DNA of 64,000 nt from an uncultured virus (IMG/VR IMGVR_UViG_3300019885_000016) (taxonomy: Duplodnaviria; Heunggongvirae; Uroviricota; Caudoviricetes), in IMG/VR virus record IMGVR_UViG_3300019885_000016; one strand, 5' to 3'. Within the stretch, counting starts at the first letter, position 1. Each line of letters starts with the position of its first letter. Both the position numbers and the translations under genes were made by a program. The notes under the pieces were generated by a model. The model was given only the letters and a program-made list of their open reading frames with translations. It was not told the origin of the DNA and did no database searches. This document shows, piece by piece, positions 2,337-44,300 of the stretch.

Positions 2337-3377
2337 TTAAGCGGTTTTCTCTTCCTCTGTGACAATCTTGCGGCAAAGCGTCACGGAATCCACCGCTTTA
2401 CGTCTCATCTCAGGCGTGGCGTGGGTATACTTGGCAGTCATACGCGCGCTGCTATGTCCCAATAGTGACTGTATGGCTGTTTCATTGAATCCTTGCTCTG
2501 CTAAACGGGTTGCGAAGGTGTGACGCAGATCGTGGAAGCGGCAATCAAATACCTTTGCGTCCTTTAGAGCTTTCCTGAACTGCTTTTCAAACCACGAAGT
2601 CTCAAACCCTCTCCCGAACAATCTCTCACCCGAAGATTCTTCCAGAAGTAATCGAACGACTTCGGACGCTTCACTATTTAGCGGAATGACTTTCTTCTTT
2701 CTTTCCTTTGTCCTCTCAGGCGGTAAGACTATTTCATTTGATTCAAGGTTCACTTCAGAGCGTCTTAGCCCTAAGATTTCGTTCAGCCTCATTCCCGTCA
2801 GTAAGCCAAGATCGAACACAGGAATGAGAGCCGGGTTTAGATGCTCGCGTATCCTCACTTCTTCATCTTCAAAGAGGTATCTTTCGCGCTGTTCGCCCTG
2901 TAGGAGCCTTTTCACCTTAGAGAGCGGGTTATCATTCGTGTAGCCGTTCTCTATCGCCAGAGTGAAGATGCGGTTAAGCACGGCCAAGTCCTGATTGACT
3001 GTCGAGGCTTTACGAACCCCGCGATTTGTAGGAGTCTCGCGCCTCAGTTTTTTGAACTTCTCTAAGAGCATGGGTGAAATCTGTTGAAACGTCCTCTGAC
3101 TGAAGAAGTCACAGAAGACTTTGCATTTCTGCTCATCCTCTTTCCACTTCTTTCTATTAGCCCTACAGTATGGCTTGAACACCTCTTCAACAAATGCAGA
3201 AAAGAGCGTGTTCCTGTTGTCACGCCCATATCTGCCTTCGTAGATTGACTGCCTGACTTGCGCCTCTACCTTTAATGCCTGTTGTTTGTTTTGAGCCTCT
3301 GGAATAGAGCCGCGATACCTGACCCTGCGGATCATAAGGTCAAATTGCCAGCGACTCTTGCGTTTCCTCACTGTCAT
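2337..3377 (-). CDS. int: Tyrosine recombinase / phage integrase
   Basis: TGMRLNE, FHDLRHTFAT, LGHSS, KYTH catalytic motifs; RBS AAGGGAG before ATG 3377. Confidence 0.97.
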   Translation of the reverse strand: MTVRKRKSRWQFDLMIRRVRYRGSIPEAQNKQQALKVEAQVRQSIYEGRYGRDNRNTLFSAFVEEVFKPYCRANRKKWKEDEQKCKVFCDFFSQRTFQQISPMLLEKFKKLRRETPTNRGVRKASTVNQDLAVLNRIFTLAIENGYTNDNPLSKVKRLLQGEQRERYLFEDEEVRIREHLNPALIPVFDLGLLTGMRLNEILGLRRSEVNLESNEIVLPPERTKERKKKVIPLNSEASEVVRLLLEESSGERLFGRGFETSWFEKQFRKALKDAKVFDCRFHDLRHTFATRLAEQGFNETAIQSLLGHSSARMTAKYTHATPEMRRKAVDSVTLCRKIVTEEEKTA

Positions 3378-3597
3378 AGATTCTCCCTTTCCGGGTCGCG
3401 CCGTAAAGGAGGGGCGCATCATATTGAAGTGCGGCGCGAGAATCAATCTCTTTCAGGGCAAAGGCGGGAATCATTGAAACCGACTGACCATCTACAAGGA
3501 AATAGTATCGCTCGCCAAGCCATGCTATTGCTGCAACTTTCCCGCGAAAGCCGTTGTAGTCCACCCACGTCCCAAGAGGTAGTAGTTCGTCTTTCAT
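3340..3597 (-). CDS. Phage hypothetical protein
   Basis: ORF coupled to the excisionase gene. Confidence 0.6.
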   Translation of the reverse strand: MKDELLPLGTWVDYNGFRGKVAAIAWLGERYYFLVDGQSVSMIPAFALKEIDSRAALQYDAPLLYGATRKGRIYDSEETQESLAI

Positions 3598-10410: not shown

Positions 10411-11232
10411 TTACTCTGTTATGTCCAGCCAGCGACTTCCTTGTGTTTTGAATCTGATACAAGCTTCAACACAGATTTCAGCCGCAAGGGATAGAATCTT
10501 GTCGCGCTCGCTGGCTGCATCGCTGGCTGCGCGGGCTGCACAGCTGGCTGCGCTGGCTGCATAGCTGGCTACGCGGGCTGCAGCGCGGGCTGCACAGCTG
10601 GCTGCGCTGGCTGCACAGCTGGCTGCGCGGGCTGCACAGCTGGCTGCGCGGGCTGCATCGCTGGCTGCACAGCTGGCTGCGCGGGCTGCACAGCTGGCTG
10701 CGCGGGCTGCAGCGCTGGCTGCACAGCTGGTTGCGCGGGCTGCATCGCTGGCTGCACAGCTGGCTGCGCGGGCTGCATCGCTGGCTGCACAGCTGGCTTC
10801 TTTCGTCCCTTCCTCCTCGCACTTGTTCGCAGCATCGCGCAGTGCTTTTTGGTGTGTCTTATCAGGATGGACTTTCGCGGCTACGCGCAAAGACAAAGGA
10901 ACGATGCGACGAATCACTTGCTCAGAGACGTAAGTAATCCATGCGACCTCGTCAACACCCGTGCTGCCGAGTTGAGCTATAGCCGCACGCCGCATCCCTT
11001 TTGTGCGCGCATCGTTTGTAGACCATTGAGCATCATTGAGGCCGATCTTGTATGTGCGAATCACCGGCGCAACGCACTTCGGTTTATCGCCATGCTTATA
11101 TCCGAGTGCATAACAGATTGCAGCTTCTACACAGAATTTACCCGGCTCTGGCACGCCCAATCCCGCAACCAAACCTTTGTCCACTACTTCTAAAACTTTT
11201 CGTGCGTCGCGTTTTGTTAGATTTGTGCTCAT
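10411..11232 (-). CDS. First gene of the leftward operon; contains an Ala-rich tandem repeat
   Basis: AAGGAG RBS; (AASC/AASD/AAR)n region. Confidence 0.8.
   Translation of the reverse strand: MSTNLTKRDARKVLEVVDKGLVAGLGVPEPGKFCVEAAICYALGYKHGDKPKCVAPVIRTYKIGLNDAQWSTNDARTKGMRRAAIAQLGSTGVDEVAWITYVSEQVIRRIVPLSLRVAAKVHPDKTHQKALRDAANKCEEEGTKEASCAASDAARAASCAASDAARATSCAASAAARAASCAARAASCAASDAARAASCAARAASCAASAASCAARAAARVASYAASAASCAARAASDAASERDKILSLAAEICVEACIRFKTQGSRWLDITE
10509..10797. repeat. In-frame tandem repeat of mixed 9- and 12-bp units
   Basis: GCTGGCTGCACA, GCTGCGCGG and GCTGCATCG units. Confidence 0.9.
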
Positions 11233-11527: not shown

Positions 11528-11794
11528 TTATTCACAGTACCGCCAATAGGCCGGACGATACCCTTGCTCTTGAGCTTTCCTCTGTGTGGTGTAGAATCCT
11601 TCTCTCGTTCGTCCATACCACTGTGAGCCGGGACACCAATAGATTCCAGATCGAGTATTTACCCAGACCTGTACGTTTGGATTGCCTTGCCTCTGCGTGG
11701 TGACTTCTGCGCTGGCGCTCTTGAATGTCGCCGGAGCGGTTGAAGTACATGCAAGGGCGATTGAAAGGAAGAGAATTGAGAGCAGTTTTTTCAT
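11528..11794 (-). CDS. Small exported protein/lipoprotein with VWVNTRSGIY..PGS.WYG.T domain
   Basis: Signal peptide with ALAC lipobox-like sequence; Ada-metal-binding-like GYRPA ending. Confidence 0.75.
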   Translation of the reverse strand: MKKLLSILFLSIALACTSTAPATFKSASAEVTTQRQGNPNVQVWVNTRSGIYWCPGSQWYGRTREGFYTTQRKAQEQGYRPAYWRYCE

Positions 11795-12204
11795 GGCGAG
11801 CTACCTTTCTTACTTAGAACGAACGCGAGGCTTTGATTGACTCGAACGAACACTAATTCTACTTGAACGGGGCGATCTGGAAATTGGTAAGTGAAGCTAA
11901 ATACCTCTGTCGGTCTGTTGCTATTTAGAAATTCAGTGAATCTACCTTTGAATTGTCTTACATCCGAACAAGGCGCTATTTCGGTAAAGAAGTTTCGACC
12001 AATAACATCTTGCGCGTGGTGGTCTGATAGTTCTTCTTCCGCGCGATTAAATTCCAGAATCTTTCCAGAGGCATCTAATTCAATTGCGCCATAAGGAAGC
12101 TCATCCAACTGCTCTGCTGTTAGAGAGGGAACACTCAAGGCTTTCCTATAACACTCTTCGCAGATTTTCCCTTTAGACGACTTCCCACACCACGCGCAGG
12201 TCAT
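11791..12204 (-). CDS. pyp: Photoactive yellow protein (PYP)-family PAS domain with N-terminal CxxC-CxxC zinc finger
   Basis: Gapless match to PYP: QLDELPYGAIELDASGKILEFNRAE...VIGRNFFTEIAPC; Cys69 and Glu46 equivalents retained. Confidence 0.88.
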   Translation of the reverse strand: MTCAWCGKSSKGKICEECYRKALSVPSLTAEQLDELPYGAIELDASGKILEFNRAEEELSDHHAQDVIGRNFFTEIAPCSDVRQFKGRFTEFLNSNRPTEVFSFTYQFPDRPVQVELVFVRVNQSLAFVLSKKGSSP

Positions 12205-12875
12205 GCGGCGTCCTCTGCTACTGCCACCTTCGGCAGATCAATCGTCCTTATCACCTTGACGAGAACAGCGTAAGGCTCAACCTTTTTTCGAGGGATTCTC
12301 ACAGTCTCGTAATCTTCATTCTCCGGCTTTAACTCAACCTTGTTTCCGCTCTGATGCCAGCGCTTCAGCGTAGCCTTGCGGTCAATGCCCTCTCTGATGT
12401 AAGCAACAACTATCTGATTTTGAGGTTCAGCCGGCGGGTCTGCCACAATAATAATGTCGCCATCTTGAATGTTGGCGTCCTTCATGCTGTCGCCAACGAC
12501 ACGTAAGGCGTGTGCATTGCGAGTTCCCGCAATGTCGGACTCAAAGACGTAGATAGTCTCAGCATCATCAATCGTCTCAATTGGCTTTCCCGCCGAAATA
12601 CGACCTTTTAGATGCAACGGAACTACGCGCGGGCATCGCTCATCTTCGGGCGGCTCAAACAGTTGCTTGTCCTTACGCGAGGCAGCCGCGCCCCGCTCCA
12701 TGAGCGCGCGTGATACCTCAGTAATTGTCCGCCGGTCTTTCTTCACCCAATACTCAATTACTTCGTAAACGTCATCGGGTACGCGAAAGGCCGGGACTGT
12801 TTTATTAAGCCCCTTCGCCACAAGCGCAACATTCTCAGAGTTTGTAGCTGTAGACAAGGAATGTTTTGTTTGCAT
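12201..12875 (-). CDS. Prophage repressor: RHH-like N-terminus plus LexA/CI S24 autopeptidase
   Basis: ISAG cleavage site, GDSM serine, ATLKR lysine; N-terminal AFRVPDDVYEVIE...RRTITEVSRALMERG. Confidence 0.9.
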   Translation of the reverse strand: MQTKHSLSTATNSENVALVAKGLNKTVPAFRVPDDVYEVIEYWVKKDRRTITEVSRALMERGAAASRKDKQLFEPPEDERCPRVVPLHLKGRISAGKPIETIDDAETIYVFESDIAGTRNAHALRVVGDSMKDANIQDGDIIIVADPPAEPQNQIVVAYIREGIDRKATLKRWHQSGNKVELKPENEDYETVRIPRKKVEPYAVLVKVIRTIDLPKVAVAEDAA

Positions 12876-12887
12876 ATAAAATACCTC

Positions 12888-12915
12888 TTGCAATATTTGC
12901 AAATCTGTGCATAAT
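12888..12915 (+). promoter_or_regulatory. Rightward early promoter with overlapping candidate operator
   Basis: TTGCAA-16-CATAAT; TTGCAA-N3-TTGCAA at 12888-12902. Confidence 0.7.
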
Positions 12916-15742: not shown

Positions 15743-16195
15743 GTGAGACACGAACGACCTCTTACACCTGAGATTGAGAACATCCTGCGCGACCGGACTA
15801 AAGTGATGGCGCATGAGATGGACGTTGACCGCTCATACTTAGACGGCATTTTATCAGGATACAGAGCAGACCCACTTGCCCACCTGATACCGATATTCAA
15901 AGCAACCTGTCGAACTGATTTATCACTAGCCCGCCCTGTATTAGACCGTCTTAATTCCATCTATGAAGCGGAAGTCGGAAGAGAATCGAAAAGGTCAGAC
16001 TTCCATCTTCAATTAGGCATGGCGATGGATAGATACAGCAAGATCATAAACAAGTTGGGCGTAAGACGTATCAACGAATTGAGCAGAGAAGAGAAGGAAG
16101 TAATAAGAGGTTGGACGGCTTCAATGTCCAGCTTCACTCAGATGGCAGAGGTTTTTGTAAGTGATTCTTTACAGGAAGAAATGGTGAGCAAGTGA
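15743..16195 (+). CDS. Phage hypothetical protein, possibly regulatory
   Basis: HTH-like KVMAHEMDVDRSYLDGIL. Confidence 0.55.
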   Translation: MRHERPLTPEIENILRDRTKVMAHEMDVDRSYLDGILSGYRADPLAHLIPIFKATCRTDLSLARPVLDRLNSIYEAEVGRESKRSDFHLQLGMAMDRYSKIINKLGVRRINELSREEKEVIRGWTASMSSFTQMAEVFVSDSLQEEMVSK

Positions 16196-17559: not shown

Positions 17560-17646
17560 CGCGAGGTTGGTCGGGCGTGGAACTGTTTATTGAAAACTTT
17601 GGGAGAGGTTGTCAGGAAATGGGGAAGCGTCCGGCCAGCGAAAAGG

Positions 17647-17829
17647 TTAGAAGCGAGTTTCTAACAGACCTAAACCAATGATTTCTACAACGTCAAAAGT
17701 ATTAACGCTGGTTGAAACCGAAGCACGTTGCGGTGGTGGTGGGGTGTATCCGGGGTCGTCAATGATTCCCGCGAAGGCAGGGACGCACAGAAGACCCGCC
17801 AGCACCAAAGAGGCGAGTGTTTTTCGCAT
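17647..17829 (-). CDS. Small secreted pro-peptide
   Basis: AAGGAG RBS; MRK plus hydrophobic core plus AFA signal-peptidase site; GIIDDPG, Pro-rich linker, amphipathic tail. Confidence 0.75.
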   Translation of the reverse strand: MRKTLASLVLAGLLCVPAFAGIIDDPGYTPPPPQRASVSTSVNTFDVVEIIGLGLLETRF

Positions 17830-17876
17830 GGCTTGTACTCCTTTCTTCGGAGATAGATAGAACCCTAAATTTTATC

Positions 17877-18512
17877 ATGCTGAAGACTCAAACAGAGAAG
17901 CCGGTTATCCGCGACAGGATGGACGAGGCCATTAAAGAACGCTCGGAAGGCCAGCCTTTGGAAGCGCTCGCCACGCTTGAATTAAATCAGGACTTACTTG
18001 ATGAGGGCAGCGATCTGGAAAAAGGAAAGTTTCACAATGGGCGCGGTGGCGCGCTCTACGAATTAGGCCATTACCAAGATGCGTTAGACGAATTTCTCTC
18101 TGCCGGTTTCCACTATCAGCAATGCGACGAACTCAGGCGTGGAATAACAGAGAACAATATAAGCAACTGCTATCTGAAACTCGGAAGGATTAAAGAAGCC
18201 AAAGAGCACGCCTTCAAAGCAATATCTATTTTTACTCTACACAATCACGCTAACTGGCTGGCTCAAACTCAAACAACACTAGCCAGTGTTTTCATTCAGG
18301 AAGGCATTTATTTTGAGGCTTCGCAGATGGCTTCTATTGCCTATTCCGCGCTGAGAGATAGTGATGACGCGCGGGCTAAAAACGAAGCATTAACCACATG
18401 GTATCTAGCCGTGTGGTGTCACTTCTTAGCGACGATTGTAGGTTTATCTTGTGAGGGGGCGCACACGGCGGGCAGGGTTGGGCAGTCCTGTCCGCTTGTA
18501 GAGGTCAAATGA
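17877..18512 (+). CDS. TPR-repeat protein (candidate peptide receptor)
   Basis: HNGRGGALYELGHYQDAL, ENNISNCYLKLGRIKEA, LASVFIQEG repeats. Confidence 0.85.
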   Translation: MLKTQTEKPVIRDRMDEAIKERSEGQPLEALATLELNQDLLDEGSDLEKGKFHNGRGGALYELGHYQDALDEFLSAGFHYQQCDELRRGITENNISNCYLKLGRIKEAKEHAFKAISIFTLHNHANWLAQTQTTLASVFIQEGIYFEASQMASIAYSALRDSDDARAKNEALTTWYLAVWCHFLATIVGLSCEGAHTAGRVGQSCPLVEVK

Positions 18513-25931: not shown

Positions 25932-26138
25932 ATGGGGTGCGAAGGTATGGGCTACATTGATTGTTTCTGCGCTGGCGACTTTTGCGCTTGCTCGTTCGGC
26001 GGCAGTCAACCATGCGAGGGCTGCGATGATTGCTACGAATCGCCAGACGGCGAGTGCGCCTGTTCTTGTGTTGTATGCACGAACACTAACTTGCATTGTG
26101 ATTCAACTTTGGCTTGTGCGTTTCGGAGTGGAGATTAG
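25932..26138 (+). CDS. 68-aa protein with 14 cysteines
   Basis: GAGGTG RBS; manual Cys count. Confidence 0.55.
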   Translation: MGCEGMGYIDCFCAGDFCACSFGGSQPCEGCDDCYESPDGECACSCVVCTNTNLHCDSTLACAFRSGD

Positions 26139-30902: not shown

Positions 30903-31316
30903 ATGAATTATGAACCTCTTGTTGAAATTACGCCCGGTAGTCTTGTCGCCGGGCTTGCGGCTGTTGCCTTGCTCGCGCTCGTCGTCGCTTACTTTTGGGT
31001 TCAATTCAAAAAAGGCGTTGATGACGCCGAGAAGACCGCTCTCAATAATTGGAAGGAGTTAGCCGCATCCGAGCAAGCTAAATATGCGGCTCTTGTTGCT
31101 GAAAAGGCAGGGCTTCAAAAGAGGTACGAACAGTTAATGGTTGCCAACGAAGAATGCGAGAAGTTGCGAGACGACTTTGCCAAGCACGTGTTAAGAGCGC
31201 GGTCTAGGGAGGAGAAATACCAGCGATGTATAAATCGTTTGGAATTTGAACTAAAGATTGAGCCGACTGATTTTGATGACCCGACCATGCACATTACATC
31301 GAGTCCTAATAGTTGA
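30903..31316 (+). CDS. N-terminal TM plus coiled-coil protein (possibly lysis-associated)
   Basis: Single TM then heptad-like region. Confidence 0.6.
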   Translation: MNYEPLVEITPGSLVAGLAAVALLALVVAYFWVQFKKGVDDAEKTALNNWKELAASEQAKYAALVAEKAGLQKRYEQLMVANEECEKLRDDFAKHVLRARSREEKYQRCINRLEFELKIEPTDFDDPTMHITSSPNS

Positions 31317-31701
31317 TGATGCGCCGGACATTCTCAACATGCTGGCTACGACGCTCCGGCATAAAGGCTATGAAGTTTCGGCGGTCGAGCGTGGCTTAGA
31401 TGCCGTGATTCAATTCATGGAGTCAATCAAAGAGGGGCGCTGCTTCGACGTGCTTGTTTTAGATTGCGCTCTACCGCAGATGGACGGCTTTAGCGTTGCC
31501 GAGCATATAAGGCTCACCGAATCTCAAGGTGTGACGGATTGTCATCCCTGGATAGCAGCATATACGGCGTACAGCAAGACGGTTGAGAAGACTACGTTGA
31601 TTGAGAAGGCGGGAATAGATGCTTACTTCGTCAAGGGTGAAGATGAGGGAAAGCTCGTTGAGCAGATAGCTAATTGGCTGTCTGAGGTGAAGACGTTGTG
31701 A
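31276..31701 (+). CDS. Stand-alone response-regulator receiver (CheY-like)
   Basis: VLIVDD, VLVLD (phosphoacceptor), PQMDG, YTAY, AYFVK. Confidence 0.92.
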   Translation: MTRPCTLHRVLIVDDAPDILNMLATTLRHKGYEVSAVERGLDAVIQFMESIKEGRCFDVLVLDCALPQMDGFSVAEHIRLTESQGVTDCHPWIAAYTAYSKTVEKTTLIEKAGIDAYFVKGEDEGKLVEQIANWLSEVKTL

Positions 31702-35333: not shown

Positions 35334-38300
35334 ATGTCCGTTCCCCAAAACATCATAGACGAGATGCAGCGCATAGGCGTTCGTCCTCCACAGCCAAGCG
35401 GCCTATCAACCATTGACCAATTGGCCGAAGAGGAAGGGCTTGCGCCTCGTCATCGTCAGGAGATAGCGGCAATAGGAGGCCAAGAAAGCGGGCGCGTCAC
35501 GAATGAAGCTCGCCCGGATTCTCACGCATCTGGTGGATTGCAGGTAATTCCCTCCACAGGACTGCATTATGTTACACCGGGAGAGTGGGCTACCCCACAA
35601 GGTAAAATCAGAGCAGGGCTGCGCTACTACAAATCAATCCTTAATGCCTTTCCGGGCGATGATCAATTCGACCAGAGAGCAGCAGCCTATCATGCTGGTA
35701 TTGGTGCTGTGCAGCACGCAGTTGCTAGTGGTCAGAGATTGCCGCATACGGAAGATAGGTATGTCAGCCGACAGCTAGGACGACCTTACTTCACTGATAC
35801 TGATTATGTACCGACCGTCTTAGCTCGCTTCAACGGCTCTAACGGAAACTCAAAGCCTCCGCAGAATGTTCAGGACGAAATAGCGCGAATCAGTGGCGCG
35901 CCTCTTTCAGGCTCGGCGCATGAAGGCCAACAGCCTCAAGCTACGCCACCGCCCATCGCTACTGAGATAGCACGAATCAATCAATCCTCGACTAGCGCAC
36001 AGGCTGGCCTGCAAACACAGCCAACCCCTTCAACCGAGGCAAATCAAGTGACAGGCCAACCCTCTCCTTTTACTGTTCCCACGTACACTACTCGTAAACG
36101 TAGGGCGACTGACGAAGGCGAGCCGGAGCAGGGCACACTTGAGCCAAATCAAGTCACGTTCACGCCCAGCCAAGCTGTCATCGCCACACCGGGAACGACC
36201 CTTCCGACAAGGGCTGCACAGGGACAGCCGACATCTCAACCGGTAGCATCCACCGCCTCGCCTATCACGACTCAATTAACACCTGAGCAGGGCTACGTTG
36301 TAGGCACAGCACTGGGAGAGGCGGCAGATAGACAGAGGCACGAGACATTTGACCAAGCGGCTTTTGAGCAATGGCGTCGTAGAAATCGCATTCCTGTGCC
36401 AAAGACGGATGAAGAAAGACGGAACACTCAGACTCTCTTCGCCAACGTTCAAAATAGCGACCCAGATGCCGTAGCTACGCTCAATAAATATCAGGCTGAC
36501 TTGCGACGACGGGACAGGATTCAAAGACGCAACGAGCCGATTAGACGACAATCCCAAGCAGGGAGCGCAAATGGCGGCGAGCCGAACTTAGGCGAAGTCA
36601 CAGATGCTGACTTCGTGAAATACCTCGGTACGCTACCTGGGGAGTCGGCGGGCTGGTCAAGGCCACAACTAATCCAAGCTGCATTCACCGTTGCGCGACG
36701 CAAGCAAGCGGGAGAAGCCCAGTCTGTTCCCGCCTTGGCGGACATGGAAAGAGCAGCTTTGCGAGAGCATGCAGGTTTGCCTGCATCTCCACAGACGAAT
36801 AACCGCCCACGCTCGCCTCTTGCGGTGCCTCCACGCCCTTCTATTGATTTCCGTAGGCCAAATAGACCATTTGAATTTACAGCAAGGGGAGAAGAGGCTG
36901 CGCGCGTACAGGCCAGCGGGCAGCAAATCCGAGCCGCACTACAGTTGAATAGCGTTCGTGACCAAGTGCGCCAACAGATGTCGCACGAATGGGAATATGA
37001 TCCGCGCAATCATAACGCGATGCCTCTTGATGACGGTGCAATTGAGCGGCGCATAAATCAGATGAGAGAGGCAACGCAGCACGAAGAGGAGTTGCGAGCA
37101 TCGCTTAGCCCCGAACAGCACCAACAGGCGCAGGAGATTGCTCAAGGGCTACAGCGTCGCTTTTCAAATGAACCCGGTTGGCTCTCAGCTTTGGATACAG
37201 GGCTGGACATCTCTGCGAGCAACACCGCAACCCTCATTCCAGGGGTCTGGAGAATTATCGGGGACGTAACAGGGAGCCAGCGCATTAAACAATTGGCGCG
37301 CGAGGGCGAACAGTATTTCGCTATGCGTCGTGAAGCTCACGATATTTCGACTAGGGGGCAAACCGACACTCAGAGCGTTCTAACAAACGGCGCGCGTGTA
37401 GTCTCTGACGTTGTTCAACTCGCGGCACTCAGCGAGGTGGCGGGGCCAGTCAAAGCGATGGCGGCGCTTGGCGGGCTTGAGTCACTTGGAGGCGGGCAAA
37501 GTTACGGGCGTGCAGCAATGGAGACTGTGAAAGGCGCGGGCTATGGCGCAATGTTCGGGGCGGCTGCACGCATTCGTCCTTTTGCCTCGACAGAAGGCTT
37601 GCTTGCGCGCGGTGGTGACTTGGCGGCACATCTCGGAACGGTAGCAACAGGCACGTATGCGATTGAGCGGGCATTCGGTTCATCTCATCAAGAAGCCATG
37701 CGCGCCGCGATGACGAATACGATTCTCTCTGGCGTATTGCAATTTACGGGCACGGTAGGTGCTGGTGTCTCGGAAGAGGCGCGCATGGCGAGTGAAGGGC
37801 GCGGCGCAGTAGGCGAGCGTTTACCTGAAAATGTTCGCGCAGCCATCACTCGCGCTCGCGGGCGCGTGCCTGTGTATGTGCAGGAGGAAAGCGGCGGTGA
37901 GGGTGGCCGCATTGGAGTAGTAAACGCTGAGCCTGGCGAAAACGGTTCCGGTAGAATCGAACACTTCCGCCCTTTAACATATGAAGAGGTAGGACAGGTC
38001 AATCCAAGTCGTTATGTCACTGTTTCGCCGGAAGAGTTCGACGCAATGGTTGAGACTTTCGACTCGTCGCGTGGTGAGCAGATTCTTAACCAAACGCCTG
38101 ACCTTGAACCCGCGCAAGGCTCGATGCCACAAGAACCTGGTGCGACTGCGCTGGTACGCAGAGAAGGAGCATCCCCCAATGAAGCACCTACGCCGAATCA
38201 AGCGCCGTCTGCGCCGCAACCGACGCCGGAAACACCTGAGACGATAAATGCTCAAATGGAGGCGTTCGTCGCCGGTCGGAGAAAAGCAATTCTAGTTACG

Positions 38301-41300
38301 CCTGGAGAAGAGATGCCGCCTTACCCGCGCGACTTGGCGGCGACCGAAACAAGCGTTGGCACATTCATCCACAACCCGCGAGAGATAACGCCCGCCCAGA
38401 TTAAGAGCATGGTTAATGACGGTTCTTATGGTTCTCTCTTAGGTCACGTCGAACCGCCAAGCCAGAGCACAACGCAAGTTGTAACGGCTCGTCATCCAGA
38501 GACAGGGGCAGAGATTCAATCTTCTTATGTCTCACCTGATAATGTTCCCGAACAGACTGCTCGCTATGAAGAGATGTATCCGCGTGCTCATATAGAGCAC
38601 GGGGGGGCAGAATTAGAGCGGCAAGTCTTAAGTGAACGCCAGCAAGTAAGCACAGTCCCCGCAAGAGAGTCCGGGCGTGAACTGCTTGGTACGAATGAGC
38701 AGATCAATCGTGAACTGCAATCACTCTCAGATGAAGGCTTACCGCTTTCAAGTGAGATACGAGGCTTGCAATCAAGTCTTTCTCGCGGTGCTACGCCAGA
38801 GATTCAAAAGATTATTGAGAATAATATTTCTCAGAAGCAATCAAGATTGGGTGAGATACAGGCAAGGCAAGCATATCTTCGCGCTGAATTACAGTTGAGA
38901 GCAGAAGGCCAACCTACTGATAATCTTCCAGACCTTAGCGAAGGAGCGATAAATGCAACAGATATTTCCAGTGAACACGCTCCCGAAGCGAGTGCGGCGC
39001 AGGATAGGCAGGAGGTTCATCCGGCGGGGCAAGGTGAAGAAGTTCAGCCGAGTGACGCGGGAACTGAGGGAGTATCTTCTCAGCCACCAGGCCGCATCAC
39101 TCCAAAGCAGATAGTTCGCCACTCTGACCCCAACATTGACGGTGGAGAGGTCGTTGGACGCACGCCCGATGGACGCCTTAAAGTCAGAAATAATGAAGGC
39201 GGCATATCAATAGTTCAAGACCCGCGCAAGCAGGGCGGCAACAGAGAGGCGGCGCTGACAACAAGGCATGGCTTGGTGATTAAGCCGAAGAGCGAGTCAC
39301 TGTCAGAATCTCAGGGACAGAAGCAGGCACAGGAAGTTATTGCTATACCGCCCGCCGCAGGAACCACAAGTGCGGTCGCCCCTGAAAATATTGAAGAGAC
39401 CAGTCCTGCGTTGCAGAAAGCAGTTAAGCATATCACCCGCAAGCCGCGCCGTAGGCGGCAAGCAGATGAAACCCGCCACAGCCTTGCGGAGTTCGTCATG
39501 CTCTCAGGCGGCATCCGACCAGACAGAGATAATGCCAACGCTGGCGAATTAAAGCGTCTTTCAACGAAATCTCTCGGCGGTCGCTGGATTGGTCTTGTCA
39601 ATAAGAACTCTTCACACACTGCCGAGCAGATGGCTACACATGCCGCAGAGCTGGGCTACCCGGTCACGGAGGGCGGCGGCTATGCCGTGCGTGGAAGAGA
39701 GTACGCATCGAATGTTGATCCGAACTTCCTGAGCATGGCCGAAGATGATGCACGGGGAATTCGCAAAATATATTCGTCGGCTAATGAGGCTTTCACCGAA
39801 GCCGACCTTGAAGAATTGACACCTGAGCAAAAGGAAGACTTGGACACGGAATTGCGTTTCCTTGCAGATGCTCATGTGGTAAGATTATTGAAAGAGGTTG
39901 AGAACGGAAATGAAGATGAAGGAATCCGAGAAGAACTCTCCATCCTCGCAAGTAACTACGGCCTCCCTGATGAAGCGGTTGACGCAAACCTCTCGTATGC
40001 TAGAGACGCATGGCTTGAACGCGAGGGGCTACTTGAGGCAAGCTTTGAACAGGGTGAAGAGGATACGTCCTTTGCCTTCGGCTCAAACCGAGAACCTACC
40101 GAAACAACCACTCCGCGGAAATTAACCGCACCAGAGCCAGAACAATCAGATGCCTTTGCTCGGTTACGCAATCTTGCGGCAGATTCGTGGAAACTCACGA
40201 AGAGTGATTACATTGCCCAAGATTGGAAGATTAGGTCTGAAGAATTTCCGGGTAGTGATAGTTTTATAGCTCGGAAGAATGCTGGGGAGAGGCACGAGCA
40301 GCAGGTTAAACAAGCTGCCCGTGAAGGCTTGTATGAACAAGCTATTAGTCGTGGCGAGTTGACTTCTCAAGAGGCTCTCAATGCTCTTGAAAGTTTAGGC
40401 GCAAATCCACCACAGTTCATCCAAAAAGCAATTAAAGCGATTGCGGATTTAACGGAGTCCCCGCTCAAGATGGCACGGCCTGAGATGCGAGAGGCTACGC
40501 CCGAAGAACGCAAGGCACTCAAGATTCCTCCTGCATGGACAGATGTTCACATTACTGATGATCCGAACGCGCGCCTTCTCGCTGTAGGGCGAGATGGTAA
40601 GGGTAGAACGCAACGACTCTACAGTGCTGCCCACACCGAAGCACAACTCGTTGCAAAATTCATCCGTCAACGCGAATTCAATTCGGCATTACCGGCAATA
40701 ATGGAGCAGGTTGAGCGGGATGCGGAAGGTGGAAATGAAGAGGCAAGCGTACTTCGTTTAATTGCTTTAACAGGCTTTCGCGTCGGCAGCGAAGCGGACA
40801 CAGGGGCGAAAATAAAAGCGTATGGGGCGACCACTTTAAGGGCAGAGCATGTTAAAATAGAGGGCGATGTTGTTCACTTTGATTTCATTGGAAAGCTTGG
40901 CGTCAGGCAGCAACACAGTATTCGTGACTCGCAATTAGCGCAGGATTTACAGGGGAGAATGACGCGCGGTGGGGCGTTGTTCTCTACTAATGATACGAAG
41001 GTTCGCAACTATCTAAATCAAATCGCTGGCGGTAAATTCTACAAGGTTCACGACTTTAGAACGTGGAACGCAACTGAAGCGGCACGTAAAGCGATTGAAG
41101 ATATTCAGCCTCCGACAAATGCGGAAGAGTATTGGCAGAAGCGAGATGATGTCGGAGACATTGCCGCACGTAAGATTGGGGACACTCGCCAGATTGCGCT
41201 TGATACTTATATTGACCCACTTGTGTTTGAAGACTGGCGCGAGCGTGCAGGAGTAGAAGAGAATGCGACAAGACCAAGACAAACGAGACGAAAAACCAGT

Positions 41301-44300
41301 GACATTCAAAGAGAAGATGGAACGGATGAAAGAACATTTCGAGACCAACCACTTCGACGTGGAGTTGAAGAAGGGCGAGCCGCGCGAGGAAGTGGAGAAG
41401 AAGTTAGCGGAGCGCTTGTAAAGTCAGAAGACTACTCAGAAGCGGTAAAGAACTTCTCTCTACAAGCATCTTCGCAGAGTGGTAGAATAGAGTCCGTGAA
41501 GGAGTATCAGCCCGGAGCGCGATTGCCTTCCGAATATGTTTACCACCAGACGACGCCTGAAGCACTAGAGGCAATCGAGAGAGAGGGATTTAGTGCGGGG
41601 GCATTTACAGACAGACCGTTTGACTTCCACTTTACAGGTGTGCGCCCCGTTTGGGTTGCTATAAAGAAGTCCGAGCTTCCCAACGTTCAATCACATCAAT
41701 ACGGGTCTGTCATCGCACACGAGACGAGTTTTGAAGCATGGCCTGAGTACGGGCGTGCCGAAACCCCACCAATCCCACCAGAGAACATCTATCTCGTTGA
41801 TAGGCGCGGCAGGGTGATTCGTAGGCTCGGCGCATCAAAACAACTGATTGAGAGAGGTGTAGATGCCTCTCTGAAAATGGCGCAACAGAATCAGGCGTTG
41901 CGCTCCGTTGAAAACTCTGCTGAACTCGCCGCGTCTGCCTCCACTTCTCTAACTGCCTTAGAAGACAATGAAGTAGTCGGCAACCCTGAAGCCGCAGAAC
42001 TCATCCGTCGCGTTATAGATAAATCTTCCGCCGACATAGACGGCCTCACTCTTTTGCCTGAAGAGTCCGCAGAAGTAATCCGCGATCTTCGTGAAGCCGC
42101 AACGCACATGAAGTCTTTGGGGTGGGACGAAGAAGATATAAAACCCTTACGTGATTTTATTGGGAATCTGATGCGCGCTCGCCGCGCCACACCATCAAAG
42201 ATTGTCGTATTCAAGCAGGATGTTGCCCACGCCACCGAGCACGAGTACATGCACGAAGGGCAGTATGTAGGCTCTGGCATGAAGCATTACTCTGAGCATC
42301 TGAGCGCAGAGGATTTCGCGGACTTAGGAAAAACGAACGACATCAAAGCTTATGATGATTATTTCAAAAATACTCCGTCTGAGCGCAACGTTCCCGTTGA
42401 AAGAAAGGTTACTGAATTAGTAGCTTTCTACGCTGCGGGTGATTATCAGAAGTTCGGGAGAACATTTGAGCAAGCGAGGGAATTTCTCAAAAAGTATTTC
42501 AGGGCGTATATTAAGCAGAACGGAAGAGAGAGCGTAGAAGCTTTCAGAAAGCAGCACACGTATGTCAGACAAATCATCGAAGAAGAGAAAGCAAGGGCTG
42601 AAAATCCTTCCGCCGAAGAAAGACCCGTTAGCGGAAGCCTACAAGATTTACAGGGAGAACGAGAACCAGCCCGAGGAAGTCCTGAACCGCCAGATGGACG
42701 CGCACCTTCGACGCCACGCGATGAAGCAACAAGCGAAACGCTAAAGCCGCGCTCTCTACCTTCTACCCTTCGTGAGCGTGGCATTGCAGCCGCAGACTCT
42801 CTATACGAAATCTATCCTAACCGCGCTGCAATCGCAGACGCTAAATCCCTACTTGAAAAATTAGGATGGGAGGCATCCGTCTCTCTAATCAAGAGTGGTC
42901 AGGCTCTCGGCGCAGAGCACATGGCTCTCGCTAAGATTCTCTCTCGCACACTTCTGTCCCAAGCATCTGAAATCTCTTCGACTGATGAAACGGAGGCTGC
43001 TCGTCTTCGTAGCGAAGCGCTCTCTATCACTTCGACAATCTCTGCTGCTGCGACTAAGGCTGGACAGTTCAATCAAGCTGTACAAGCAATAGAAACGTCC
43101 GTTGAAGACGTTATGGCTGCTGCTCAAAGAATTGTGAGTGAGCGTGGTCGAGAGTTGTCGCCTCCTGAAGCCGCAAGAATCCACCGAGCAGGGGAAGAGT
43201 TAGAGCGCACAAACGCTGAGATGGAAGTGGCTGCGTCCGGGTCTGCCGATGCTCGCGCTCAGATTGAAGAGAACAGGAAGATGCGCGGCTGGGCTGAAGG
43301 GGGCCAACTAACAATGGCAGAGATAGACACCCTGCGTAAACGATTAGCTAACCTCCGAGCAAAAGAGAAAACAAGAGAACGGCGTATTGATGAGTTGGAA
43401 GGACGCATCCCGCCGCATGTGCGCAAAGTCTCAGCGCGTAAAGGCGGGCGCTCTCAGGTTCGTCAGAGGGCTGCTGAGTCCCTGGCTTTTGACGAATTAG
43501 ATTTGATGGCGCAGGTTAAATCTGCTCTAGGGATGGGTGGACATTTGAAGATGGCGCAAGCCCGTGCGCTAACTGATACGGAAGCTTTTAAGCGGTGGTT
43601 TGGAGATTCTAAAGTAGTTGATGAAGAGGGCAAACCGCTTGTTTTATATCATGGCACACGCGGGGACTTTGATGAGTTTAGCGGAGAGAGACGTATTTAC
43701 CTGACAACAAATCCTGAGCAAGCGGCGCTCTACGGCAATACCATGATGCCGGTGTATCTGAAGGCTGGCAGTATAAGGGAGGTGGGAGAAACAGCAGGCC
43801 GGTGGTGGAAGGATAAATTTGATGCTGTAACTTCTGCCTATAAACAGTTAGACAGCCGCCGAGTTGATGTGGTGCTTCTTAGGAATACCGCCGACCCCCC
43901 TGTGTTTAATAAGGGCGAAAAGCAAATCTTCGGGGATATTTATGTTGTTAACGACCCAACTCAAATCAAATCAGCAACAGGCAATCGTGGAACATTCTCA
44001 CTAGATGACCCGAACATTCTAAAAATGGCTCAACCCGCCGAGCGTCTTTCTGAAGGATTCACAGGAGAGACACTTCAAAACCTTGCGCACCTCGGAGCCT
44101 TGCGCATCCTTCGCGGCCAATCTTCCGTCGAAGAGTGGAAGCAGGGGATGATTTCAGACTTTGGCTCTCAGATAAAACCTCAAATAGACAGCCTCCACGC
44201 TGAATCGGTCAAAGTCGTTCGTGAGACTTTAAGGCAGGCGAGACGTGATGCTGAACTGGAAAGAATCCGCTCCCGTCCCGGCAATGAAGAGTTGTCTCAA

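Follow-up and report, generated by a model that had tools for sequence, protein, structure and literature searches.

Acidobacteria are abundant soil diderms in which little is known of cell-to-cell signalling. Does a temperate phage of such a host carry a secreted peptide and the receptor that reads it? The question is raised by a 64,000-nucleotide stretch of DNA from an uncultured virus (here called the window), in which a first-pass annotation had proposed a peptide communication module of the arbitrium/RRNPP type, made of a small antisense ORF and a neighboring gene for a TPR protein.

A peptide gene and a TPR-only gene in a prophage early arm

The window holds a prophage, with host genes at positions 1 to 1973, an integrase gene at 2337 to 3446, leftward and rightward arms, and then terminase genes. 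An S24/LexA-type repressor gene (12201 to 12902) ends the leftward arm, while the rightward early arm encodes ParB, a Cas4-like exonuclease, a methylase, a helicase, and a primase. The two ORFs lie inside the rightward arm (Table 1), with the peptide ORF on the opposite strand, and they are divergent, with 47 bp between the peptide ORF and the TPR start codon. The TPR stop codon overlaps the ATG of a C5 DNA methylase gene (ATGA, 18509 to 18512). A host gene in the flank is 59 to 64% identical to genes in three of five Acidobacteriota/Pyrinomonadaceae metagenome-assembled genomes, in keeping with the original guess of a diderm host from the Acidobacteria; this gene and the distribution of the TPR family point to a Pyrinomonadaceae-like host.

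Table 1. Predicted features of the peptide/receptor cassette and of the gene family upstream of other short-form cassettes
Feature	Position	Strand	Basis or remark
Pro-peptide gene, 60 aa	17647..17829	-	ORF; family HMM E=1.6e-9; called as a gene in public collections
Predicted Sec-type signal peptide, residues 1-20, ending AFA	17770..17829	-	Sequence and family conservation at -3/-1
Predicted signal motif GIIDDPG, residues 21-27	17749..17769	-	Sole part of the pro-peptide that co-varies with the receptor
Pro run, Ser/Thr linker, hydrophobic/amphipathic C-terminal helix	17650..17748	-	Family alignment
Shine-Dalgarno sequence AAGGAG of peptide gene	17838..17843	-	8 nt before ATG
Extended -10-like element TG-n-TAAAAT for peptide gene	17869..17877	-	45 nt before ATG; overlaps TPR start codon
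Long G-U-rich RNA hairpin, TPR strand only	17566..17641	+	Between the stops of the upstream 113-aa gene and the peptide gene
TPR-only receptor candidate (P0001), 211 aa	17877..18512	+	Pfam TPR_2 match; fold model; no HTH, AAA+, or SD
Predicted groove codons R22 (17940), N54 (18036), Y61 (18057), specificity; N94 (18156), invariant anchor	17940..18158	+	Conservation and co-variation
Disordered, non-homologous tail, spanning a weak hairpin	18444..18512	+	pLDDT <55; hairpin z -2.2
Upstream 160-180-aa family, locus L088	2642-3187
Upstream 160-180-aa family, locus L089	143-670
Upstream 160-180-aa family, locus L096	2387-2902
Upstream 160-180-aa family, locus L137	635-1186
Upstream 160-180-aa family, locus L244	5851-6324

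The small ORF reads just as it had been described, antisense and with a strong ribosome-binding site, and an SD-like motif is present in 76 of 83 peptide genes of its family. We built a peptide HMM from 72 ORFs of other loci, leaving the window and the short forms out of training; searched against the 64-kb window, it matched this ORF (E=1.6e-9) and nothing else below E=4. The predicted product has a basic N terminus, a hydrophobic core, and a putative cleavage site between AFA and G, as judged by a heuristic and by family conservation (Ala at -1 in 78/83 members, Gly at +1 in 75/83), so the Sec signal that had been proposed agrees with the family. The exported part of family members begins with G-[DE]-[IM]-x-T-[PG]-G and continues through a Pro run and a variable linker to a hydrophobic helix; the Pro linker and amphipathic tail noted for the window are thus a recurrent anatomy. 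The motif is clearly repeated inside 38 of the 83 pro-peptides, with a single copy in the window, and the internal copy is closer to its own motif than to those of other loci in 67/83. Matches to the peptide in the ESM Atlas all score below 0.9 and fall in three Acidobacteriota clusters, which we take as a lead only.

The neighboring protein, P0001, scores 29.7 bits against Pfam TPR_2 (cut-off, 27), and its AlphaFold model, made from 119 sequences, is a plain TPR superhelix of ten helices (mean pLDDT, 90), followed from around residue 190 by a disordered tail. Neither Pfam nor PHROGs gave an HTH in P0001, and the description as a TPR-only protein near the peptide gene holds. We asked whether the tail might hold a degenerate Fis HTH, as two short relatives do, and rejected this because the region is disordered and no alternative frame exists there. 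The two Asn-bearing helices singled out in the first-pass annotation differ: N94 (ENNI) is invariant in 119/119 aligned family members, whereas N54 (FHNG) is present in just 61/119 and behaves as a specificity position. Helix positions in the single-chain model suggest that R22, N54, Y61, and N94 line the concave face. P0001 has lost two near-invariant family residues (R137, now Ser, and E/D133, now Thr, the latter shared with its relative P0004) and retains N94, Q130, T134, E170, and T174. In fold comparisons, LGN/Pins (Z 20 to 21) rank above Rap105 (Z 17.8) and the PlcR TPR domain (Z 17.4, rmsd 2.9 over 177 residues), and in sequence comparisons kinesin light chain and LGN come ahead of Rap (E 1e-9 to 1e-6). 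Since LGN-type TPRs outrank Rap and PlcR, the fold does not place P0001 among RRNPP receptors.

Several other genes of the window are of interest in their own right. A homologue of photoactive yellow protein (PYP) is encoded at 11791 to 12204 (- strand), directly downstream of the repressor gene, and matches solved PYP with E 1e-19; it keeps the Cys of the APC motif and has an N-terminal CxxC..CxxC pair. A PYP-like gene also lies beside the repressor gene in the prophages of genomes G167 and G003 and of locus L244, while genome G326 has a full-length chromosomal copy, a zinc-finger PYP gene with no cassette within 40 kb around it. The PYP-like protein may feed a second sensory signal into the phage switch. 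The same repressor operon encodes, downstream of the PYP-like gene, an 88-aa predicted exported protein with a Cys-bearing C-terminal part (11528 to 11794, - strand). In a 273-aa ORF at 10411 to 11232 (- strand), units of the AARAASC type form a long Ala-rich tandem array, which gives rise to overlapping open frames. A 3813-aa ORF (35334 to 46775, + strand) precedes the terminase genes; by eye, it has topoisomerase-IB-like and ART-PolyVal-like stretches, and we take it to resemble polyvalent phage proteins. The late region encodes a stand-alone receiver domain (31258 to 31701, + strand) amid genes for small membrane proteins.

A receptor family of Pyrinomonadaceae and its short forms in phages

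A word-indexed protein search matched the query alone, or seven proteins when an alignment was used as the query; INPHARED phages gave no match, viral contigs had no match for P0001, A2, A3, or P0004, and two DNA runs that are possibly from the source sample showed no variants in the window. An unindexed search of 1.84 billion representatives with P0001 returned 635 matches. The best 150 of these comprise generic multi-TPR proteins and a specific set that matches the whole core in one stretch, divided into long forms of 400 to 760 aa and short forms of 185 to 236 aa. Long forms consist of the TPR domain, an optional sigma-54 AAA+ domain, and a Fis HTH, at times with an S24 or receiver domain. 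They are common in Pyrinomonadaceae, with at least 580 confirmed stretches and several to many paralogues per genome, and are about 25 to 35% identical to the window TPR core. With a short-clade profile, short forms were found in just 3 of 401 family genomes. The folded core of P0001 (residues 7 to 188) corresponds to positions 159 to 330 of the 515-position long-form profile. By sequence comparison, the window pair belongs to a large, unannotated Blastocatellia family; its module derives by trimming from that of the host and is not phage-specific in origin.

In a quick tree, whose short rows were chosen by likeness to the query, P0001 groups with 14 other short forms (SH-aLRT 99) as sister to P0004, while the short form of locus L244 falls among long forms and has different truncation limits (113 to 287). 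Tree and limits suggest that the short form arose twice, with L244 apart. The closest relatives of P0001 (P0004, P0011, P0051, and P0153) are known from their protein sequences alone.

The first-pass annotation had named the finding of TPR homologues without adjacent signal-peptide ORFs as the result that would count against the pair, and we found the opposite. A divergent small exported ORF lies beside the long form in 7/7 viral loci. Among loci with enough upstream DNA, a family-blind signal-peptide heuristic scored the divergent ORF in 78/84 cases versus 20/84 on the same strand; this method is noisy, giving 26/76 and 12/76 in control windows. In 79 of 87 long-form loci, the peptide HMM had a match at the divergent position and none elsewhere in the locus (72 of the 79 are training rows, one miss has 135 nt upstream only, and locus L012 is included in both the heuristic and the HMM counts), and it also found the peptides of the short-form loci L088, L089, L096, and L137, all outside training. 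In an enlarged set with at least 850 nt upstream, a divergent family peptide accompanies 191 of 204 distinct TPR domains, leaving 13 with no peptide neighbor. The peptide gene is present at all five other short-form loci, including L244, which was found through its upstream neighbor gene rather than its TPR and again has a short TPR gene with a divergent peptide gene (L245, from the same neighbor-gene search, is the same phage as L089).

Judged by gene content, short forms belong to the early regions of phages, where their neighbors are genes for a repressor, ParB, a methylase, or replication. At L089/L139, L096/L119, L137/L141, and L244, a repressor gene lies a few kilobases upstream and methylase, PAPS-reductase-like, or replication genes lie downstream; the L088 contig, of 4 kb, carries small phage-like genes. 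Directly upstream of the short cassette, the other five loci all have a member of an unannotated phage gene family of 160 to 180 aa (Table 1), a candidate target or partner. It has no PHROG hit and no detectable homology to the window gene at 15743 to 16195, and for these reasons a "CII-like" label that we had considered for it was dropped. In the G003 prophage, a TnpB-like gene of the IS200/IS605 type, recognized by eye (L096:336-1436), is inserted right after the short TPR gene.

Signals around the cassette also distinguish the short forms. The hairpin past the peptide stop has a folding energy of -38.3 kcal/mol, with z -6.4 on the + strand and 0.05 on the - strand, has no U-tract, and is the second most extreme of 300 tiled 95-nt segments. 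(Other strongly folding 95-nt stretches lie at 26111 on the - strand, z -5.6, and at 16041 on the + strand, z -4.7.) It has no match in Rfam; candidate roles are a processing site, a stabilizer, or an atypical terminator. A TPR-strand hairpin abuts the peptide stop in 6/6 short-form loci, with z below -3 in four (versus 5/75 long-form loci) and no significance in L089 and L244 (z -1.2 and -1.5); five of the short-form hairpins have no alignable common structure and no shared sequence. Long-form loci have a GTGTG-type motif after a small hairpin, 45 to 100 nt past the peptide stop, in 61/83 cases versus 0/5 short loci, and this arrangement (loci L001 to L087) may represent a type of terminator or an operator site for the Fis HTH. 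A similar hairpin with GTGTGCG lies on the - strand at window position 18466, inside the TPR tail.

A consensus promoter scan found none for the peptide gene. A TAnMMT hexamer, however, lies 45 to 51 nt before the peptide ATG in 6/6 short-form loci, versus 3 hits among 78 long-form loci. Most long forms are preceded by AAAGG, whereas the P0001 gene has no SD sequence; since this is also absent from other short forms, we regard its lack as a clade trait. The simplest reading of these signals is that the early transcript, after crossing the hairpin and covering the peptide gene in antisense, would yield the TPR protein at a low level, and that a separate predicted promoter would drive the peptide gene. 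Such opposed, overlapping transcription of receptor and peptide recalls prgX/prgQ.

A residue code between predicted receptor groove and peptide motif

Co-variation of receptor and peptide had been put forward as a check of the pair, and we observed it at the very 7-mer that had been named. From the 191 pairs we removed 5 short forms and 12 of unclear motif register, leaving 174, or 164 at 85% identity, and calculated mutual information with APC correction between 198 receptor columns and 24 peptide columns (window numbering). The top pairs among the 164 long-form pairs were receptor position 61 with motif position 2 (Z 19.7), 22 with 4 (Z 16.1), and 54 with 5 (Z 14.5), followed by 62 with 2, 51 with 7, and 58 with 2. 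The best APC value was 0.48, compared with maxima of 0.08 in signal-peptide columns and of 0.07 to 0.11 in free shuffles, and the C-terminal tail of the pro-peptide showed no co-variation with the receptor domain (maximum 0.12). The pairings are chemically specific. Lys at position 61 goes with Asp at motif position 2 in 54/66 cases, Arg with Glu in 40/45, and Glu with Gln, His, or Asn in 16/16, while small or apolar residues at 61 pair with Ile or Val. Acidic residues at motif position 4 lie opposite Arg or Lys at position 22 in 31/35, and at position 54 Asn goes with Thr or Ser and Gly with Phe or Tyr at motif position 5.

The code between groove positions 61, 22, and 54 and motif positions 2, 4, and 5 survives phylogenetic controls on these alignments. 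When peptides were swapped between nearest relatives, the three top pairs fell to APC values of 0.155, 0.06, and 0.04. Sign tests on independent pairs, with a tree built without these columns, gave p 0.008, 0.016, 0.008, and 0.016, with p=1 for crossed controls, for position pairs chosen from the same data as were tested. The motif and the matching receptor positions have each undergone about 30 changes on the tree. In leave-out prediction from the three positions, trained only on receptors less than 65% identical to the target, the cognate motif ranked at a median percentile of 0.95, and 130 of 164 ranked above 0.75. Thus, groove reading by residues 61, 22, and 54 is strongly supported at the family level by co-variation. 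In the model, positions 51, 54, 58, and 61 share one face of the helix formed by residues 46 to 62, in an order opposite to that of the motif, which suggests an extended peptide in the TPR groove; an extended binding mode has been described for RapF (PMC3601957, in excerpt).

The window pair fits two of the three code positions, with Y61 facing Ile2 and R22 facing Asp4, and 9/9 host pairs with a G-[IV]-x-[DE] motif likewise have R22 and a non-basic residue at 61. Both charge rules hold in 6/6 short-form pairs, which had been held out, and 12 of 720 pairings would satisfy them; because L089 and L096 are related, the test is weaker than this fraction suggests. Under the three-position code the window pair ranks at percentile 0.26 to 0.34, a low value because N54 normally goes with Thr or Ser and Asp at motif position 5 occurs in 0/164 host pairs. 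With a finer alphabet, L244 (motif GIIEQPG; groove L61/R22/N54) and L137 rank at 0.56 and 0.69. The N54/D5 misfit may reflect a private phage dialect or drift.

Proposed mode of action and relation to known peptide-receptor systems

On balance, we think it probable that the window holds a self-contained, prophage-borne peptide/receptor pair operating in the manner of an RRNPP circuit. Expressed from a separate promoter that opposes the early operon, the pro-peptide would be exported by Sec; cleavage after AFA would expose GIIDDPG at the N terminus, and periplasmic or extracellular proteases would trim it off the Pro linker. Re-entry could use a host importer of the Opp/Dpp type, and 4 to 5 family-5 solute-binding proteins are encoded in each of five related host genomes. 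In the cytoplasm, the peptide would bind extended in the TPR groove, with N94 as its anchor and residues 61, 22, and 54 reading its sequence. Phages have cut the host-type receptor (TPR with optional sigma-54 AAA+ and Fis HTH) to its binding core, and since only this core is kept, the output should be a peptide-controlled protein contact. As a guess, the free TPR protein binds a phage or host regulator early in growth, and accumulating peptide, as a measure of how dense infected or lysogenic cells have become, switches the contact off; the nearest precedent, by analogy, may be the anti-repressor mode of RappLS20. Counting against such a circuit in the window copy, the hydrophobic C-terminal helix could keep the pro-peptide in the envelope. 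A wider proposal, which we put forward tentatively and consider rather doubtful as it stands, is that temperate phages of Acidobacteria have more than once paired a bare receptor core with a private peptide, making an arbitrium-like census that steers lysis-lysogeny through protein contact, evolved independently outside Bacillota and readable from a three-residue code.

The C-terminal helix bears equally on an unlikely alternative in which the pair is cognate yet cell-autonomous, with a peptide that stays in the envelope and reports Sec export, periplasmic proteolysis, or outer-membrane integrity, or serves as a timer. The host is diderm, the conserved helix could tether the product, and co-variation speaks for binding rather than diffusion; nevertheless, the rapid, matched diversification of motif and receptor and the many paralogous dialects per genome fit kin-specific signalling better, and the motif repeats resemble the duplicated pheromones reported for phage Rap systems (excerpt of PMC11343458). 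We give somewhat less credence to a decoy or jammer, in which the effector-less TPR protein soaks up host peptides or poisons host TPR-HTH/sigma-54 regulators, or the phage peptide floods host receptors. Retention of the binding core alone, the many long-form paralogues of hosts, and host pairs with similar G-I-x-[DE] motifs would suit it, but a pure sponge has no need of a peptide matched to its own groove, as the two charge rules indicate for 6/6 short forms, and D5, which host motifs lack, leads away from host dialects.

Ranked just after these is the reading that the cassette type is real and the window copy has drifted and no longer signals. It draws on the N54/D5 mismatch, the loss of R137 and E133, the absent TPR SD, the disordered tail, and a long branch. 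Against decay, both frames are intact, the fold is confident, the conserved residues listed above are kept, as are the promoter-like element, the peptide SD, and the hairpin, and the missing SD and T133 have the parallels already noted among other short forms. The proposed output as a Rap-like phosphatase acting on the orphan receiver did not stand up, and we regard it as very improbable. A stand-alone receiver does lie 13 kb downstream, and the fold matches include Rap structures (Z 17.8), but these rank below LGN-type TPRs, and the P0001 model has TPR-type hairpins alone and no N-terminal 3-helix bundle. Three related prophages also lack such a receiver close to the cassette: in G167 and G473 the contig that bears the cassette has no match, and the nearest match in G003 (E 4e-7, in a 564-aa frame) is about 55 kb away. 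The orphan receiver is probably unrelated to the cassette. Least probable of all is that the ORFs are chance neighbors or that the peptide ORF is an antisense shadow. Small antisense ORFs are common, and codon usage of the pair is uninformative and lends no support, but the family HMM match, the conserved linkage and orientation, and the residue co-variation confirm at the sequence level that both ORFs are real and that their pairing exceeds chance.

The arbitrium-like census proposed more tentatively above would, if true, be phage-to-phage peptide communication outside Bacillota, in a Gram-negative soil phylum. The residue code lets the idea be examined without culturing the host, using a 190-residue protein and 7-mers in cognate versus swapped pairs. 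The effector-less phage form raises the question of how a bare TPR core transmits a signal, and the diderm host that of how the peptide gets back across the inner membrane. In the literature covered, which leaves out most subscription journals, there was no description of the Pyrinomonadaceae TPR/pro-peptide family or of an RRNPP-type system in Acidobacteria; what is new here is the residue-level code and the phage-borne form trimmed to the binding core.

Intracellular peptide quorum sensing and phage peptide communication have been described for Gram-positive Bacillota (excerpts of PMC10075063 and PMC13389391). Scored by the five RRNPP criteria in the PMC10075063 excerpt, the 60-aa window peptide lies within the 10 to 100 aa of known pro-peptides, a Sec signal is predicted by heuristic and family conservation, TPRs are indicated by Pfam, model, fold, and sequence matches, and the genes are adjacent, 47 bp apart and divergent, as kept in 191/204; the receptor, by contrast, at 211 aa (185 to 236 aa in the other short forms), falls short of 250 to 500 aa. 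RRNPP systems occur in Bacillota, whereas the flank gene and the family point to a window host from the Pyrinomonadaceae (Acidobacteriota). Rap and PlcR TPRs match P0001, yet LGN, Pins, and kinesin light chain score equally well or better, and Asn anchoring of peptide is general to TPR domains (PMC3601957, in excerpt). With four of five criteria agreeing, length and phylum off, and homology unspecific, the pair appears to work like RRNPP without being filed there, and the membership in RRNPP or arbitrium first proposed is not upheld.

Among known systems, Rap-Phr (RappLS20-Phr*pLS20, and Rap3T and Rap105 of phi3T and phi105) also places a Sec-exported pro-peptide beside a TPR protein without a DNA-binding domain on a mobile element. 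Rap has a conserved Asn anchor and variable specificity residues, and it contacts response regulators with a 3-helix bundle and linker that precede the TPR domain at the N terminus (PMC3601957, in excerpt), and RappLS20 is a peptide-inhibited anti-repressor acting by protein contact (PMC7641744, in excerpt). The window receptor has an invariant Asn, a candidate anchor, along with variable residues and a matching fold (Z 16 to 18), but its host is diderm, its genes are divergent rather than tandem, it has 211 aa with TPR hairpins from residue 7 and no bundle, and its motif is predicted at the N terminus of the exported part, followed by the Pro linker and hydrophobic helix. The arbitrium system AimR-AimP-AimX of SPbeta-group phages likewise has an exported peptide and a TPR receptor, both encoded by the phage, whose codes have diversified (PMC13389391, in excerpt). 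AimR, however, binds DNA and controls aimX, whereas P0001 has no HTH and we identified no gene resembling aimX; the sequence and fold matches listed for P0001 do not include AimR. PlcR-PapR, NprR-NprX, and PrgX-prgQ carry an N-terminal XRE HTH, host long forms a C-terminal sigma-54 AAA+ and/or Fis HTH, and the phage form neither; one short relative has a weak RNPP_C match (E 0.0012), under the cut-off. The window pair is most like the host Pyrinomonadaceae TPR-(AAA+)-Fis-HTH family in core, pro-peptide anatomy, orientation, and, largely, code. It differs from that family in a receptor trimmed to the core, a short-form spacer of 23 to 78 bp versus mostly 100 to 250 bp in hosts, loss of the TPR SD, a TPR-strand hairpin in place of hairpin plus GTGTG, and its place in a phage early operon.
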